Positions 9,194 to 30,779 of a stretch of 64,000 nucleotides of DNA are shown piece after piece. A program made the position numbers and the translations under genes. The notes below the pieces were generated by a model. It saw only the letters and a list, made by a program, of their open reading frames with translations. It ran no database searches and was not told where the DNA came from. Positions within the stretch are counted from its first letter, which is position 1; every line of letters begins with the position of its first letter. Source of the DNA: an uncultured bacterium (GTDB lineage: Bacteria > Omnitrophota > Omnitrophia > Omnitrophales > Abzuiibacteriaceae); contig CAYLXA010000001.1 in assembly GCA_964387845.1 (NCBI GenBank), positions 1-64,000 of the forward strand, written 5' to 3'.

Positions 9194-11203
9194 ATGACAA
9201 ACGCTATCTTCCAGACAGGTTTTTTGATGACGATGTGGGCAGCTGCCGTTTTATCAATCGCCGCCCTGACTGTGGGCGTCAAGCGGCTGAGCGCCATCGC
9301 CCTGTTTTTGATTTTCATGGTGATTGCCGGCTGGGCCTACTTCAGCCAGCAAGCCATGGAACTTATTTTCACGCAAAATGCCGCGCAGCAGTCTTTGCTT
9401 AACCTCGCTTCAATGATTTTGCTTTTACTGCCGCCTCTTTTTTATCATTTAGCCTGCCTCGTGATGCGCAGGTCGTGGACGCTGCGCCTTTCGCTCGGCA
9501 CCATTTATGCCCTGCATCTATTTTTTGTCGGGCTTATTAATTATCGATATGTGCCAGAAGGCGACGAATCGTTCGCGATCCACTTTTGGTTTTTTCAAAT
9601 TTTCCTGTCTGATCTTTACCGCACACTCTTCTTTGCGACTTTCATAGCGGCTATCATCCGCATGGCCCAGTTTCACGTCGAAGTCAACGGGCGACTCCGG
9701 TTCCGGGTCCAGTACCTGCTGCTGTCAATTTTTGTGCTCATCGTCGGATATTTGGGCACACCGGGCTTTAGCAACCTGCTTTTCGGGCTTGATCCGATGC
9801 CGCAAATGCTGCTCGCGTTTCCCTGCTTTGCACTGCTTACTTCTTACGCGATTTTATCCAATGCAACGATGAGCATTCAGCGGGGCACGGTCCGGTTCTC
9901 GATTTTCGCGGCTGTCATCGCCAGTTTCGTCTGGTGCCTGATGACGCTCAGCGCGATTTTGCCGGTCTACGCCGGAAGGCTTGAACTCATCCATCCTTAT
10001 CTGGCGCAAATCCTGGCTGCAGTCATCGTGACCGGTGTTTACATCACCGCATACCGTCTGATTCAAAGTTTGGTTAATAAATTCGCCAAAAAACAAAACG
10101 ACGAGGTCCAAAATACCGTTCTGCAGGTTGCTGCCAAAGCCGCATCCGAAAAGAACCTCACGGAAGCCGTCCGGATTTCGATGGATTTTTTAAGAGATTA
10201 TTTCCGGCTCGACGAAGTAGCGCTGCTTGTTAAAGAGGATGAAAAGGACATTTACACGGTGAAATACTGCCACGGGCTCGATTTCTTCCGGTTGAAGGGT
10301 TTTGAAGTTGCTAAGAGCTTGATCAAATGGCTGAACGACAAGCGCCGCTCTTTTATTTTGAGCGAAGAAATGCAGAACATGACACCTTCGGTTTTTTATG
10401 AACATACTTACACGCTGCGCGATTTAAAATTGGAAGCATGCCATCCGCTGTTCATTAAAGAAGTGTTGGGCGGAATTGTGCTTTTGGGTTTCAAAGAGAA
10501 ACGGCAAATTTATACGCAACGGGATCTGAATCTCATCACCATCATGAGCACCATCCTGGCTTCTATTATCGAAAACCAACGGCTGCTGGGCCAGGCAGTC
10601 ACGGATGGTTTGACCGGCCTTTTCCATCAGAAATATTTCAAGGCCCGCCTGGGCGAAGCGCTTGAGCGCAGCAATCATAATAAATCCGAGCTGGCTTTAA
10701 TTTTGCTCGATATTGACCACTTTAAAAAGCTGAATGATACGCAAGGGCACTTGGCCGGTGACCGGGTCCTTCAGGGCATTTCGAAAACACTGCAGGAAAC
10801 CGTCCGTTCAAACGACATTCTCGCCCGCTACGGCGGTGAAGAATTTGCGGTTTTTATTTACAGGCCTTATGCGGGCAACCAAGTCGAAAAACACGACCTT
10901 TTGACCGCCGCGGAACGGCTTGCCGAAAAAATGCGCGTGAATGTGAAGGACAAGAAAATCCTCTACAACGACCGCCTTCTACAGGCAACCATCAGTGTCG
11001 GCGTTGGCTTTAAAGACCCCGGCGAAACCAATCTTTCGGTTCAGGAACTCATTGAAAGAGCGGATCAAGCGCTTTACCACGCCAAACGGCACGGACGCGA
11101 CCGGGTTGCCATTGCCACGCGGTTCGGGATCCGCATTGAAGAACCTTCTATTGAGCCGCCCGACACCGATCCTTTCTCTAAAAATCCGGGCCCCAACGTT
11201 TAA
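9194..11203 (+). CDS. Membrane-anchored sensor diguanylate cyclase (multi-TM N-terminus, GAF, GGDEF)
   Basis: 'RYGGEEFAVFIY' GGEEF active site. The domain is preceded by a GAF-like region and an N-terminal hydrophobic domain of about 7 TM helices. Confidence 0.85.
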   Translation: MTNAIFQTGFLMTMWAAAVLSIAALTVGVKRLSAIALFLIFMVIAGWAYFSQQAMELIFTQNAAQQSLLNLASMILLLLPPLFYHLACLVMRRSWTLRLSLGTIYALHLFFVGLINYRYVPEGDESFAIHFWFFQIFLSDLYRTLFFATFIAAIIRMAQFHVEVNGRLRFRVQYLLLSIFVLIVGYLGTPGFSNLLFGLDPMPQMLLAFPCFALLTSYAILSNATMSIQRGTVRFSIFAAVIASFVWCLMTLSAILPVYAGRLELIHPYLAQILAAVIVTGVYITAYRLIQSLVNKFAKKQNDEVQNTVLQVAAKAASEKNLTEAVRISMDFLRDYFRLDEVALLVKEDEKDIYTVKYCHGLDFFRLKGFEVAKSLIKWLNDKRRSFILSEEMQNMTPSVFYEHTYTLRDLKLEACHPLFIKEVLGGIVLLGFKEKRQIYTQRDLNLITIMSTILASIIENQRLLGQAVTDGLTGLFHQKYFKARLGEALERSNHNKSELALILLDIDHFKKLNDTQGHLAGDRVLQGISKTLQETVRSNDILARYGGEEFAVFIYRPYAGNQVEKHDLLTAAERLAEKMRVNVKDKKILYNDRLLQATISVGVGFKDPGETNLSVQELIERADQALYHAKRHGRDRVAIATRFGIRIEEPSIEPPDTDPFSKNPGPNV

Positions 11204-25861: not shown

Positions 25862-26845
25862 TCAAATCCCGACGGCTGTTTTGGCGTCTTGTAATGTTTT
25901 TTCGGCAATTTCGGATGCTTTCTTTGAGCCATTCTTCAAGACATCCAAAACGTAATCTTTCTTCGATTTCAGCTCCGAACGTTTCTCATAAATGGGTGTC
26001 GTAAACGCCTGCAGGCAGCCCGACATCTCGCGCTTGCATTCAACACAGCCGCGCGCAGCCGTCCGGCACTCTTTTGCCACAATTTCGACCTTCTCCGGTG
26101 TATTAAAAATCTTGTGATAAAAATACACCGGACAAACATCCGGATTTCCCTTGTCTTCGCGCCGCTTGCGCGCAGGATCCGTCACCATTTGCATGACTTT
26201 CTTATCCGCTTCTTTCGGCGAATCCGATAAATAAATCGCGTTGCCGTAAGACTTGCTCATTTTCCGGCCGTCGGTGCCGGGCAGCTTTTTTACTTTCGAT
26301 AAAAGCGCTTCAGGCTCCTTGAATGTTTTCTTGCCGTACAAATGATTAAAGCGCCGCGCGATTTCGCGGCAAAGTTCCAAATGTGGCAGCTGATCTTCTC
26401 CGACCGGCACAGTATCTGCTTGATAAAGCAGGATGTCGGCTGCCTGCAGAACCGGATAACCCAAAAAACCGTGCGTGTGCAAGTCTTTCTCTTTGAGTTC
26501 CTGAATCTGATCTTTGTAAGTTGGATTCCGCTCAAGCCACGAGAGCGGCGTAATCATCGATAATAAAAGCGCGAGTTCTGCGTGCTGCCTGACTTGGCTT
26601 TGTATAAAAATTGTCGCGCGGTTCGGATCAAGCCCGCTGGCCAAATAATCAAGTGCAACTTCAAATACATTTTCCCGGATTTTCGTATGAGATTCATATT
26701 CGGTCGTCAGCGCGTGCCAGTCGGCGACCATGAAAAAAGCTTCTTCGCCTTCGAATTTCTTCCAATTTTCAAGCGCGCCCAGCAAATTTCCCAAATGAAG
26801 CTGACTGGTCGGCCGGGTGCCGCTTAAAATCCGTTTTTTTGCCAT
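25862..26845 (-). CDS. trpS: Tryptophanyl-tRNA synthetase
   Basis: 327 aa class I aaRS with 'TGTRPTSQLHLGNLLG' and 'KMSKS'. Confidence 0.9.
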   Translation of the reverse strand: MAKKRILSGTRPTSQLHLGNLLGALENWKKFEGEEAFFMVADWHALTTEYESHTKIRENVFEVALDYLASGLDPNRATIFIQSQVRQHAELALLLSMITPLSWLERNPTYKDQIQELKEKDLHTHGFLGYPVLQAADILLYQADTVPVGEDQLPHLELCREIARRFNHLYGKKTFKEPEALLSKVKKLPGTDGRKMSKSYGNAIYLSDSPKEADKKVMQMVTDPARKRREDKGNPDVCPVYFYHKIFNTPEKVEIVAKECRTAARGCVECKREMSGCLQAFTTPIYEKRSELKSKKDYVLDVLKNGSKKASEIAEKTLQDAKTAVGI

Positions 26846-27039
26846 TTTTACCTGAAATAAGTCTCTATTTTTACCTAAACTACGAAGTTGTCATATCTTA
26901 CAAAAACAGGCAATACTACACTAAAGTACTTAAGAAAGTCAATTAAGCAACGGCCGATCGCTTGTAAAGCTAAAATAATCGGGTTATTCTTAAAGTGTCT
27001 TTAAAAAACTGCTCATTAAAGTGTGAATCGAACGTCCGC

Positions 27040-27215
27040 CAAAGATCGTGGCGGATCCGCTAAGCAGTGTGGCGGAGGTAAACTAACTGAAAAGTTGGGG
27101 CGCAAAGCAAGAGGTCCGAAATGAAATTAAAAGGATGGCTCGGCTGCCGAAATTCATATTCAGAATTTGGAATAAACGCCCGTACTTTTTAGTACGGGCG
27201 TTTATGTTTTTATGG
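27040..27215 (+). promoter_or_regulatory. Candidate c-di-GMP-I (GEMM) riboswitch with an intrinsic-terminator expression platform in the 5' leader of the pilin-like gene
   Basis: 27071-27106 'GGCGGAGGUAAACU-AACU-GAAA-AGUU-GGGGCGCAAAGC' matches the GEMM core 'GGCAAACC-stem-GNRA-stem-GGGACGCAAAGCC' with identical spacing. A 13-bp perfect hairpin plus U-tract sits at 27174-27212, and the ATG is at 27226. Confidence 0.5.
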
Positions 27216-27225
27216 AGAAAAACGG

Positions 27226-28218
27226 ATGAAGCAAAAAAAGTTGGGTGTAACGCTGGTTGAAATCATGATTGTGGTTGCCATCATCGGTATAGTGGCAGCA
27301 TTCGCAATCCCCAACTATCTACGTTCAAGGCAAACAGCCGATACCGCTTCTTTGGAACAAACCGCACGTCAGATTGCGCAAAAAATGGAACAAATTTTCT
27401 GGGGCCAGAATCCAAACGAATATCCGCCGGAATTGTCGATGCCTTCCGGGCTTGTCACGTGGGCTGCGCCAACCAACTTGGGCAATATTCAAGATTTGCT
27501 TGAATTGCTCAAGAAAATTTGTGAACAACAGGGTAAAAGCTTGTCATCCGGCCAAATCGGAGATTTGACGGCCTCTGAAATTGCTGCCGATCCCGAAGCC
27601 ATGCAAGCGCTCGTTGAAACTTGTTTCCAGAACAATCCGCCACTAACATACACAACACCGGCCGGCGGACAAACCTATTTATTTTCTGTGTCATCACCCA
27701 ATGGAACCAACTACACGGCAAGCCCGGGCGGCGTCAGCCAAACGCCTCCCGATTGCACCGGTGATGCCGGATGCGATGACGGTGTTTATTGCAATGGTGT
27801 TGAAACCTGCCAGTACGGAAGCTGCCAGGCCGGAATTAGTCCGTGCGACGAAGGATATACCTGCCACGAATCTTATCAGGAATGTACTGAGGGCATCTGC
27901 GGAAACGGTATTTGGGAAGGTTATGAAGAATGCGGTGAAGAAGATACGGGATTTAGTTATGAATTCATGGAATGCATTAATTGCCGCTGGGAATTCGTCG
28001 GCTGCCCAGAGGGTTACTATTTCTACGACTGGGCATGCTATCCATCGCCGCCCGACTGCCCATCAGGCTCTTACAAACAACCCGGTCTCGGATGCTGTTG
28101 GCCCGATCCCGGCATGCCGCCGTGGCCAAGACCTATTCAACTGCCTACTTGCGGAGAAGTCGCTGAAGTAATCCCGGATGGCGGCGGGCCCCCTCCGATG
28201 GACGACCCGTCATTTTAA
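27226..28218 (+). CDS. Prepilin-type (GspG/type IV pilin-like) protein with a large Cys-rich C-terminal domain
   Basis: N-terminal 'KKLGVTLVEIMIVVAIIGIVAAFAIPNY' class III signal/methylation motif. The C-terminal 160 aa contain about 30 Cys in CGNG..E.CGE-type repeats (myxobacterial Cys-rich-repeat-like). Confidence 0.75.
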   Translation: MKQKKLGVTLVEIMIVVAIIGIVAAFAIPNYLRSRQTADTASLEQTARQIAQKMEQIFWGQNPNEYPPELSMPSGLVTWAAPTNLGNIQDLLELLKKICEQQGKSLSSGQIGDLTASEIAADPEAMQALVETCFQNNPPLTYTTPAGGQTYLFSVSSPNGTNYTASPGGVSQTPPDCTGDAGCDDGVYCNGVETCQYGSCQAGISPCDEGYTCHESYQECTEGICGNGIWEGYEECGEEDTGFSYEFMECINCRWEFVGCPEGYYFYDWACYPSPPDCPSGSYKQPGLGCCWPDPGMPPWPRPIQLPTCGEVAEVIPDGGGPPPMDDPSF

Positions 28219-29305: not shown

Positions 29306-29525
29306 ATTAACTCCAGATTAAAATTTTCATAACCCATTCAACACAAATAGCTTATGGAAACAAGAGGTATAGTAGCTAAATCGCTTCATAAAGTCAAATT
29401 GACTATTTAAGATGGATTGCAATAGCCCAACATTACAGGTAAATTTTAACAGATGCATCAGAAATGCAGCGACAGCTTACTTCGATTATTAAATTAATAA
29501 AGTAAGCCAAAAGGCCGAAGCAATA

Positions 29526-30779
29526 TTGCACATGAAAACTTCAAAAAAATATGGTTTAACGCTGGTTGAAATTGTGATTGTGGTAGCGCTCATCGCACTT
29601 GTTTCAATGATCGCAATTCCCAACTTTATGCGCAACCATCAAACCGCCAATTCACAATCTTTTGCTCAAACCATTAAACAAATTGCCCAGAAACTGGAGT
29701 TGATATTCTGGGGCCAGAACCCAAACGAATATCCGCCCGTATCCGCCTTTACAAACGGCCTGCAAACCTGGGCAGCGCCTACGAACCTCGGAAACATCGA
29801 GGATTTGGAGCGGCTTCTTCAAAAAGCATGTGAAGAAATTCTAAAACAAAATTTCAGCGCGGCTTCTCTCAACGATCAAACAGTATTTGCCCAGGAACTC
29901 TTTAATTGCCTTGACGGGCATGTGATTGATTATATTGTCACCGAAGACTTACAAAATTATTGGTTTAATTTTGCGGATCCATACACGACCGGCTATTACA
30001 GCATCGGAAATGGTTTTAGCGAACCTAAATACAACGATCCCGTAGTGCCGGCTCCTCCGCCTCCTCCGCCGCCAGCTTGCGGAAACGGCATTGCTGACGC
30101 AGGAGAGTTTTGCGGCGAGCCCCAATTTCCGGGCTGTCACGCAGGTACAACCTGCATTAACTGTCAATGCGAAGCAATAGCAGGCTGTGGTGGCTTCTCA
30201 GGAGGAAGCTGTAATCCTAATTTTCCATCTACCTGTCCGCCCGGATATTCTTGCCATGCACAATGCCGCCAATGCGTGTTCAATAATTGGAACCCTACCG
30301 GGGGCGGCAGCTGTTTTGTCGGTGATACGCAAATTTTGATGACGGACGGAAGCACAAAAGCCATTAGCGATATTCAGGTAGGCGATCAAGTCGCCAGCTA
30401 TAATGAAGAAACTAAAACGGTGGTAGTATCAAAGGTTGATAAATTACTAATCCACGATCCGGAAATTTATTGGATCATCAACGATCGAATCAAAGTAACG
30501 CCGAACCACAGCTTTTATATTGACGGAAAATGGAAGCATATTGGACAAGCTGAGCTGGGTGACAACATGCTCAAGCATGACGGAAATCAGGAAGCTATTG
30601 TAAAAATGGAACTAATTACTATTAAAGAACCTATTTACAACTTGGAAATTCAGGACACGCACACCTACTATGCGGAAGGGGTCTTGGTACATAATGCAAT
30701 CAAGGGGTATACTCCCGGTTGGACGCATGGAAACATGGACGGAATTGAAGCGCCGGACGGTGATGGGGACGGCGGTTGA
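29526..30779 (+). CDS. Prepilin-type (GspG-like) protein with a Pro-run, a Cys-rich module and a C-terminal Hint (intein-like/BIL) autoprocessing domain
   Basis: N-terminus 'KKYGLTLVEIVIVVALIALVSMIAIPNF', paralogous to 27226. The Hint domain lies at nt 30312-30695. Confidence 0.75.
   Translation: MHMKTSKKYGLTLVEIVIVVALIALVSMIAIPNFMRNHQTANSQSFAQTIKQIAQKLELIFWGQNPNEYPPVSAFTNGLQTWAAPTNLGNIEDLERLLQKACEEILKQNFSAASLNDQTVFAQELFNCLDGHVIDYIVTEDLQNYWFNFADPYTTGYYSIGNGFSEPKYNDPVVPAPPPPPPPACGNGIADAGEFCGEPQFPGCHAGTTCINCQCEAIAGCGGFSGGSCNPNFPSTCPPGYSCHAQCRQCVFNNWNPTGGGSCFVGDTQILMTDGSTKAISDIQVGDQVASYNEETKTVVVSKVDKLLIHDPEIYWIINDRIKVTPNHSFYIDGKWKHIGQAELGDNMLKHDGNQEAIVKMELITIKEPIYNLEIQDTHTYYAEGVLVHNAIKGYTPGWTHGNMDGIEAPDGDGDGG
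30312..30695 (+). other. Hint/intein-like domain (blocks A, B, F, G) inside the pilin-like CDS
   Basis: The intein/Hint splicing blocks are present: 'CFVGDTQILMTDGS', 'TPNH' (TxxH), '...YNLEIQDTHTYYAEGVLVHN'. No endonuclease domain is present, and the +1 residue is Ala. Confidence 0.75.

Follow-up and report, generated by a model that had tools for sequence, protein, structure and literature searches.

The 64,000-nucleotide (nt) stretch of DNA analyzed here, which we call the window, covers positions 1 to 64,000 of contig CAYLXA010000001.1 from an uncultured bacterium of the Omnitrophota (assembly GCA_964387845.1). Our subject is the 380-nt intergenic region that separates trpS (25862-26845, minus strand; PF00579, 226 bits) from a divergently transcribed pilin-like gene, and the putative riboswitch for cyclic diguanylate (c-di-GMP) within it. 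An earlier note, made from the sequence alone, had proposed a class I c-di-GMP (GEMM) riboswitch with a terminator at this place. The pilin-like protein carries a prepilin-type N-terminal domain (PF07963, 27.2 bits, cutoff 21.2; TIGR02532, 23.4 bits, cutoff 16.3), its N-terminus reads KLG/VTLVE with E at +5, and 18 of its 20 cysteines are found past residue 170, that is, in a Cys-rich C-terminal half, in agreement with the description in the note. The family of this protein is tiny, with five members among 5.8 billion proteins; pilin and pilus genes as such recur downstream of class I aptamers. The GGDEF cyclase gene to which the note had pointed is present as well: the protein encoded at 9194-11203 has a PF00990 domain (133.9 bits) with a GGEEF motif and an RxxD site. 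The divergence of trpS and the length of the intergenic region were also given correctly; however, the transcribed leader is probably about 229 nt, not 380 nt, because a conserved, predicted promoter occupies part of the region. This promoter has the -35 element TTGTAA (26962-67), a 17-nt spacer and the -10 element TATTCT (26985-90). TTG and TAnnnT at the 17-nt spacing are invariant in an alignment of five orthologous and paralogous intergenic regions, which included the window region, the region upstream of a Hint-domain paralog of the pilin-like gene, and those of the relatives L001 and L004 (L numbers denote loci used for comparison). The features of the leader are listed in Table 1.

Table 1. 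Predicted features of the leader and the downstream gene, in window coordinates
Feature	Position	Strand	Description or basis
Predicted promoter of the pilin-like gene	26962..26990	+	Conservation in five intergenic regions
Hairpin H1	27035..27055	+	Stem TCCGCCA/TGGCGGA, -12.1 kcal/mol; first repeat unit
Hairpin H2	27056..27076	+	Stem TCCGCTA/TGGCGGA, -8.4 kcal/mol
c-di-GMP-I aptamer	27067..27151	+	RF01051 score, RF03167 alignment, conserved positions of PMC3764141
Upstream anti-terminator strand	27089..27102	+	GAAAAGU..GGGCG; minimum-energy fold to 27190, inverted repeat I3; excludes P2 and core
Small AU hairpin	27150..27168	+	AAAUUC/GAAUUU; in minimum-energy folds, between aptamer and terminator
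Intrinsic terminator	27172..27211	+	15-base-pair stem, UUUU loop, U tract 27207-11
Downstream anti-terminator strand	27177..27190		Terminator 5' arm and loop; minimum-energy folds
Pilin-like gene with Shine-Dalgarno sequence	27214..28218	+	Shine-Dalgarno GGAG 27214-17, ATG 27226, coding sequence 27226-28218, 330 amino acids
Transcript 26997-27190, anti-terminator states			-49.7 to -52.3 kcal/mol
Transcript 26997-27190, P2 and P3 intact			-45.5 kcal/mol

The whole window was scanned against all 4227 Rfam families. Four matches exceeded the gathering score, three of them tRNAs and the fourth the c-di-GMP-I (GEMM-I) family, RF01051, which scored 52.8 bits (gathering score 35) over model positions 1-87 of 87, with E = 1.8e-7 for a 64-kb window and 4227 families. 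This full-length match bears out the riboswitch call of the earlier note. Weak matches at 27137-27240 (Thr_leader, MicC and others) merely reflect the terminator hairpin and were set aside. In the model alignments, using the numbering of the Vibrio cholerae aptamer Vc2, the recognition triad consists of G20 = 27077, A47 = 27104 and C92 = 27147; the roles of these nucleotides in ligand recognition have been described (PMC3764141, PMC11218506). A47-A49 correspond to 27104-06, C93 to 27148, C44 to 27101 and the bulged G83 to 27138, and the equivalents of G14-C93/A95 are G27071, C27148 and A27150. G42, G45, A23 and A25, given for the internal loop of helix P2, are all kept (G27099, G27102, A27080, A27082). 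Helix P2 (hairpin region 27078-27103) has outer pairs 27078-79 with 27102-03, the internal loop GGC (27099-101), and a stem 27083-88 with 27093-98 that is capped by a GAAA tetraloop at 27089-92. P3 spans 27106-27145; its lower part pairs well, and the distal stem is nearly absent. The region of the tetraloop receptor, which in the class belongs to P3 (C59-G79 and neighboring positions), reads CC-GAAA...AAAA-GG, in which the CC:GG pairs and the AA step are kept, and the 11-nt motif is not. C22 is replaced by U, giving a U-G wobble, as happens in about 8 of 121 other aptamers. The other Vc2-numbered positions named above are those listed in PMC3764141 as pocket-forming or highly conserved. The GEMM core quoted in the earlier note is present, although it spans 27071-27108 rather than 27071-27106; the GAAA-capped P2 was likewise seen correctly, with a stem of six base pairs (bp), not four, and P3 and the ligand-contact nucleotides are present in the alignments. 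The sequence evidence supports the view that the element is a genuine member of the class I c-di-GMP riboswitch family with a terminator platform. The P2 internal loop has GGC where GAC is usual. We considered this a possible peculiarity of the aptamer and dropped the idea: GGC is ordinary, being shared by at least 120 genomes across many phyla.

The terminator begins 20 nt downstream of the aptamer and ends 14 nt before the ATG. Its stem (27172-86 with 27191-205) is perfect and has 15 bp, 7 of which are G-C, with a 4-nt UUUU loop followed by GUUUUUAUGG (tail GTTTTTATGG), on the strand of the downstream gene, and it folds at -23.8 kcal/mol. The earlier note had reported this hairpin with its U tract and its distance from the start codon (the U tract ends at 27211, the ATG is at 27226), and both hold; only the stem had been given as 13 bp. 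A promoter search of the stretch from the hairpin to the ATG gave no sigma-70-like candidate; a demonstrated promoter there is what the same note had named as speaking against its call.

To follow the order in which structures could form, transcripts of rising length were folded to minimum energy. When the transcript ends at 27190, i.e., when the 5' arm and loop of the terminator are out and the 3' arm is not, the fold switches to an anti-terminator, in which 27089-95 (GAAAAGU) pairs with 27184-90 (ACUUUUU) and 27098-102 (GGGCG) pairs with 27177-81 (CGCCC). For transcripts with this end the anti-terminator is the minimum-energy fold whatever 5' end is assumed, and the same complementarity was found independently by a repeat search (inverted repeat I3). 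The anti-terminator duplex has -16.5 kcal/mol, and the P2 hairpin alone only -4.2 kcal/mol. The strand that would be captured is therefore not the one that the earlier note had in mind: P1 had been suggested as the anti-terminator alternative, and the folds show the P2 loop, the P2 3' strand and the GGGCG core instead. A candidate that uses the P1 5' strand (AT2, 27066-74 with 27177-86) was rejected, with -41.7 kcal/mol versus -49.7 to -52.3 kcal/mol; this strand is also inside H2. An energy of -16.5 kcal/mol was reached by 23 of 2000 and 43 of 2000 shuffles in two controls, by 7 of 652 other segments of the window and by 1 of 200 arm shuffles. Shuffle statistics alone give the anti-terminator modest support, and the comparative evidence is stronger. 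The same design, in which the tetraloop, the P2 3' strand and the core are complementary to the 5' arm of the terminator, was found in the unrelated aptamers L030, L022, L114 and L075, the first with 12 contiguous bp; the P2 sequences differ among aptamers that share the design, and the terminator arms differ to match. It was also found in aptamers that share the two 5' hairpins of the window (the H1/H2 subclass, considered below), namely L170, L203, L215, L129, L169 and L241. In the shuffle controls the L170 anti-terminator was equaled in 0 of 200 and that of L203 in 2 of 200; L215, which is also located upstream of a pilin-like gene, has 11 contiguous bp. Altogether, 12 of 18 subclass members with a separate terminator have this design.

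Taken with the model folds, these observations suggest that the element is probably a transcriptional OFF riboswitch of the c-di-GMP-I class, with a leader of about 229 nt and an anti-terminator built from P2 and not from P1. Under this model, in the absence of ligand, the emerging 5' arm and loop of the terminator (27177-90) would invade the weak P2 hairpin, with the GAAA loop, the P2 3' strand and the core GGGCG (together 27089-102) as pairing partners. The 5' arm would thus be held, and RNA polymerase would read through into the gene. Conversely, when c-di-GMP is bound, P2 would be locked by the pocket, by the docking of the tetraloop and by the C44-G83 contact; the anti-terminator could not form, the 15-bp terminator would fold, and transcription would end before the gene. 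The direction of the switch follows from the layout: the terminator does not overlap the aptamer, therefore the ligand cannot directly prevent the terminator but only the anti-terminator, which gives OFF logic. For comparison, all seven functional class I switches of Clostridioides difficile are OFF switches (PMC6366702).

The second part of the analysis concerns the nucleotides immediately 5' of the aptamer core. The 42 nt before G20 are a tandem repeat of a 21-nt unit (27035-55 and 27056-76), and each unit makes up one hairpin, its stem 7 bp and its loop 7 nt long (H1 and H2, Table 1). The 3' arm of H2, UGGCGGA (27070-76), ends 1 nt before G20 and fills the positions of the 5' strand of P1 and of the whole joining region J1/2. 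Canonical P1 is barely present: the only possible pairs are G27071-C27148, U27070-G27149 and U27068-A27152, and its 5' strand is inside H2. Another outlier, L108, located upstream of a pilin gene in a Candidatus Omnitrophota metagenome-assembled genome (MAG), has a GC-rich J1/2 that also pairs with an upstream segment. A tblastn comparison with the Omnitrophota loci showed no genes in common. Metagenomes were scanned for class I cores whose J1/2 is rich in G/C, which returned at least 120 loci, with 106 distinct aptamers among the matches listed; the statistics that follow refer to those matches. All seven nucleotides from -7 to -1 are complementary to a segment within -50..-10 in 37% of the 106 aptamers, compared to 4% in shuffled and 5% in far-upstream controls. 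A hairpin ends at -1 or -2 in 64 of 100 aptamers; 49 of these 64 have a second hairpin immediately 5', with a gap of zero in 37. When 23 members were simply aligned with MAFFT, pairing was seen in 96.8% of cells, versus about 40% when the partners are slid, and 6 of the 7 pairs in each hairpin change on both sides. It should be noted that the 23 members were chosen for pairing; the unbiased evidence is therefore the enrichment of complementarity at -7..-1.

A covariance model of H1, H2 and P2 (R1) gives the window 81 bits and all of roughly 100 aptamers from representative genomes 49.7 bits or less, and the H1/H2 layout is rare among class I aptamers from these genomes. At 55 bits or more, R1 has at least 36 matches in the metagenome set, many of them outside the set from which it was built. 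In the alignment of 36 aptamers, changes on both sides occur at 7 of 7 pairs in H1 and at 5 of 7 pairs in H2, and 96.2% of cells are paired versus 35-50% in slid controls. A full-length class I aptamer above the Rfam gathering score was present in 19 of 20 subclass loci tested. Among the matches listed, the platforms comprise six overlapping terminators of the ON type and 17 separate terminators, with none detected in 36. The downstream genes are diverse as well (pilin-like proteins, excisionase-type helix-turn-helix (HTH) proteins, RlpA-like proteins and response regulators). Both platform types and diverse genes are thus represented, which suggests that the two hairpins accompany the sensor and are not tied to one kind of platform. 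Another metagenome scan, for the exact J1/2 plus core of the window leader, gave no match. We also examined a long-range pairing of 27035-41 with 27070-76 as a possible conserved toggle and rejected it, since the H1 sequence varies independently of H2 in other loci and the cross-pairing is not conserved.

These aptamers may constitute a class I sub-type, in which one or two 5' hairpins are fused to G20, no single-stranded J1/2 is left, P1 is replaced, H2 acts as a surrogate or an affinity tuner, and switching would proceed solely via P2 or P3; we hold this tentatively, at slightly less than an even chance. A literature search, the coverage of which was incomplete so that novelty is unproven, yielded no description of a class I variant with 5' hairpins. 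The most probable place of H1 and H2 is in the sensor domain, where they would replace P1 in cis or else tune the affinity for the ligand. We lean toward the former because complementarity for P1 does not exceed chance in the subclass, because some H2 stems have 9-13 bp, all of them G+C-rich, and because the C. difficile aptamer Cd1 binds its ligand without P1. As a stand-in, H2 would have the strand polarity of a P1 that ends in a loop and whose chain is broken after C92. A less likely, though still serious, explanation is that H2 is a competitor outside the bound structure, which has to open for canonical P1 and J1/2 to form and thereby shifts the apparent affinity from the picomolar-nanomolar range to cellular micromolar concentrations. 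The energy of H2, -8.4 kcal/mol, is similar in size to the excess of binding energy in class I aptamers of very high affinity, an excess that we estimate at about 7 kcal/mol from a picomolar dissociation constant (Kd) and micromolar ligand; the stability of P1 has been proposed to tune sensitivity (PMC9262584), the RF03167 alignment permits the three P1 pairs named above, G is common at -6, and C93 is invariant. On the other hand, subclass H2 stems of 9-13 bp with high G+C content would hardly be opened by ligand binding, and complementarity between the 5' flank and the 3' tail, which in canonical aptamers is 68% versus 46% expected by chance, is not above chance in the subclass (45% versus 39%). 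That H1 and H2 act as DNA, with GGCGGATCCGCC and TCCGCCA-N7-TGGCGGA as palindromic operators for a transcription factor, is extremely improbable. The palindromes are perfect, and GTGGCGGA occurs 7 times in the window versus 2.07 expected; however, five of the copies lie on the minus strand far from the leader and outside such palindromes, in every case H2 is joined to G20 on the aptamer strand, and the arms change together across loci while the sequence is not conserved, which identifies them as RNA helices rather than an operator.

Several observations weigh against the interpretation of the element as a working OFF switch. The receptor is atypical (CC:GG plus an A-rich loop, departing from the 11-nt motif), and so is J1/2: the window has GG at -3/-2, where 121 class I aptamers gathered without regard to J1/2 have A in 107 and 102 cases and G in 2 and 4, respectively. 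The transcription start near 26997 is itself a prediction. Judged on this one sequence, the anti-terminator is significant only at about the 1-2% level, and the terminator nucleates locally and is far more stable, so that the kinetic competence of the anti-terminator is assumed. The same intergenic region of the syntenic relatives L001-L004 contains no aptamer and no terminator, and the sole other copy (L005/L126) matches the window at 100% identity over 15,160 nt. At this locus the riboswitch is therefore lineage-specific, and covariation cannot be drawn from it. Furthermore, the direction of a class I switch cannot be extrapolated, Bc2 being an ON switch (PMC6366702), and Bc1 is a class I switch that is insensitive to ligand in vivo (PMC11218506). 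Many of these points are shared by a reading that we regard as rather unlikely, namely, that the aptamer is real and the switch is inert, a constitutive attenuator or a structure locked regardless of c-di-GMP, either because H2 sequesters the strand of P1 and J1/2 or because the element is a recent, decaying acquisition. The ligand-competent fold with canonical P1 lies 9-16 kcal/mol above competing folds, among the 16 c-di-GMP riboswitches of C. difficile 5 do not function (PMC6366702), Bc1 seems to be locked OFF in vivo (PMC11218506), both receptor and J1/2 are unusual, and the closest relatives have no such element. Yet every conserved core nucleotide is intact, the complementarity of the anti-terminator is intact and recurs in the subclass, and H1 and H2 are conserved and covary in many aptamers that pass the Rfam threshold, which argues against a local accident. 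An ON switch, or action on translation instead of transcription termination, is very improbable. Class I ON switches do exist, in six subclass members the 3' strand of the aptamer itself serves as the 5' arm of the terminator, and type IV pilin expression in C. difficile is activated by c-di-GMP via a class II switch (PMC6366702); in the window, however, the terminator (27172-205) is clear of the aptamer (end at 27151), nothing that ligand binding sets free can pair with the terminator, and the Shine-Dalgarno sequence is unpaired in all predicted folds.

It is similarly improbable that the aptamer senses another ligand, such as 3'3'-cyclic GMP-AMP (cGAMP) or the ligand of a variant family. The best clan member in E-value mode is RF03167 (c-di-GMP-I-GGC) with 53.4 bits, and J1/2 is unusual, both of which would be compatible with a variant. 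This score is, however, below the RF03167 gathering score of 59. At the core, the consensus is GACGCGAAgC for RF03167 and GACGCAAAgC for the canonical model, and the window reads GGCGCAAAGC, therefore it has the canonical A at position 47; in the RF03167 alignment, GCGCAAAGC stands opposite GCGCGAAgC of the model. The GGC variant was thus ruled out. The cGAMP type (GEMM-Ib), marked by A at position 20, was ruled out as well: position 20 is G27077, and this G counts against a cGAMP aptamer because the substitution G20A confers cGAMP binding (PMC7288161). C92 is also present. Sensing of c-di-GMP by an OFF switch remains the explanation that we prefer.

Among the closest known systems is Cd1 (Cdi-1-3, of the C. 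difficile flgB operon), a class I transcriptional OFF switch whose aptamer can form alongside a separate terminator downstream, each in competition with an anti-terminator (PMC9262584, PMC6366702). Cd1 binds c-di-GMP with a Kd of 0.25 uM and has no detectable canonical P1; its authors consider P2/P3 a conserved scaffold and the stability of P1 a tuning element (PMC9262584). The Cd1 anti-terminator is composed of the 'T + A + H' strands, where A is the strand that stabilizes the aptamer (PMC9262584), whereas in the window the P2 tetraloop, the P2 3' strand and the core would be used. No pair of 5' hairpins joined to G20 has been reported for Cd1, and its targets are the flagellar genes of a Firmicute, whereas the window leader has both hairpins and precedes a pilin-like gene. 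With the structural reference Vc2 the window shares G20, A47, C92, the GAAA tetraloop on P2, the C44-G83 contact, A48, A49 and the G14-C93/A95 positions (PMC3764141). In Vc2 the two ends of the RNA form a P1 that is required, and J1/2 is a single strand of 5 nt; in the window the 3' arm of H2 takes these places. Vc2 acts on translation, whereas the platform here is a terminator, and the receptor is of neither the Vc2 nor the 11-nt type. RF03167 resembles the window in overall fold and short P3, and several members of the H1/H2 subclass pass its gathering score; however, opposite A47 of the window its consensus carries G (GCGCGAA versus GCGCAAA), and its J1/2 consensus is A-rich. The GEMM-Ib cGAMP riboswitches (for example, that of pilM in Geobacter metallireducens) have the same scaffold and association with pilus genes (PMC9262584), but they have A20 and are ON switches with an overlapping terminator, compared to G20 and a separate terminator in the window. 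Finally, the riboswitch Cdi-2-4, located upstream of pilA1 in C. difficile, puts a type IV pilin gene under the control of c-di-GMP by way of transcription termination (PMC6366702), although with a class II aptamer and ON logic, in contrast to class I and the predicted OFF logic here.

Some observations made in the course of the comparisons concern the riboswitch family at large. There are 7 aptamers among the 121 with a GGGGCGCAAAGC core that have A and not G at position 20 (..AAUAGC AAAC), the signature linked to cGAMP specificity; these include L012, L015, L025, L030 and L037, and L012 and L030 are Candidatus Omnitrophota MAGs. Five H1/H2 subclass aptamers (L184, L193, L186, L139, L236) pass the RF03167 gathering score despite the canonical A47; the RF03167 model seems to capture canonical aptamers with a short P3, too, which is a caveat for annotation. 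In several of the comparison loci a tandem pair of class I aptamers is packed into roughly 100-130 nt (L046, 4665-4796; L100; the 3' flanks of L193, L194 and L207). Tandem arrangements of c-di-GMP-I aptamers are already known. Proteins with an HTH domain of the excisionase/MerR type (..VGEVA.WL.V...T.YRL...G.LPGFKVG.QWRF..) recur downstream of the subclass aptamers L129, L170, L192 and L197; such small HTH proteins are unexpected regulon members for c-di-GMP riboswitches. In the window aptamer itself, an exact 7-nt direct repeat, CCGAAAT, occurs at 27116-27122 (P3 receptor region) and at 27147-27153 (C92-C93-G94-A95...), possibly by chance. The copies of GTGGCGGA are at 27048 and 27069 on the plus strand and at 27636, 32125, 51826, 55545 and 56653 on the minus strand; none of 100 shuffles reached seven.

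The pilin-like locus is hypervariable between close relatives (L004, 3515-6819; L001, 6001-9539). The flanking housekeeping proteins of syntenic relatives are 84-93% identical, whereas the pilin-like proteins are 45-67% identical and vary in number; L004 has three tandem pilin-like genes and retains the manC-like gene only as a remnant. Nucleotide homology with the relatives stops near 26950 and resumes inside the coding sequence. The paralog of the pilin-like gene in the window (29526-30779, plus strand) has a prepilin-type N-terminus (TIGR02532, 18.3 bits, cutoff 16.3), a Cys/Pro-rich middle and a C-terminus of the Hint/intein type (PF07591, 53.8 bits; intein_Cterm, 21.3 bits, cutoff 15.6). 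This pilin-Hint fusion is unusual, and it is kept in the relative L001. Neither the Rfam scan of the window nor the R1 model indicated a riboswitch before this paralog. The block between trpS and the pilin-like gene (26886-27000) and that between the manC-like gene and the pilin-Hint gene (29335-29460) are paralogous, as are those of L001 (5806-5925 and 8100-8230); both divergent blocks have a conserved TTGAC[T/A] promoter on the minus strand and a TTG-17-TAnnnT promoter on the plus strand. Therefore, the intergenic region was duplicated together with the pilin-like gene.

Taken alone, the locus provides one more c-di-GMP-I riboswitch before a pilus-type gene, in an uncultured lineage; as such, it is a new but unremarkable addition to a well-known family. 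Its interest is raised somewhat by membership in a recurring, covarying and apparently undescribed sub-type with 5' hairpins. For the organism, the OFF logic predicts that the Cys-rich pilin-like protein is made only at low c-di-GMP. Class I aptamers are usually described as three-way junctions, in which P1 couples ligand binding to the expression platform. The current Rfam models do not contain the H1/H2 hairpins, and some members of the sub-type are assigned to the GGC family despite the canonical A47. The covarying architecture, with a hairpin at the place of P1 and J1/2, offers a concrete set of sequences for testing how the pocket closes without P1, whether affinity is tuned by such a hairpin, and how the signal would pass through P2.

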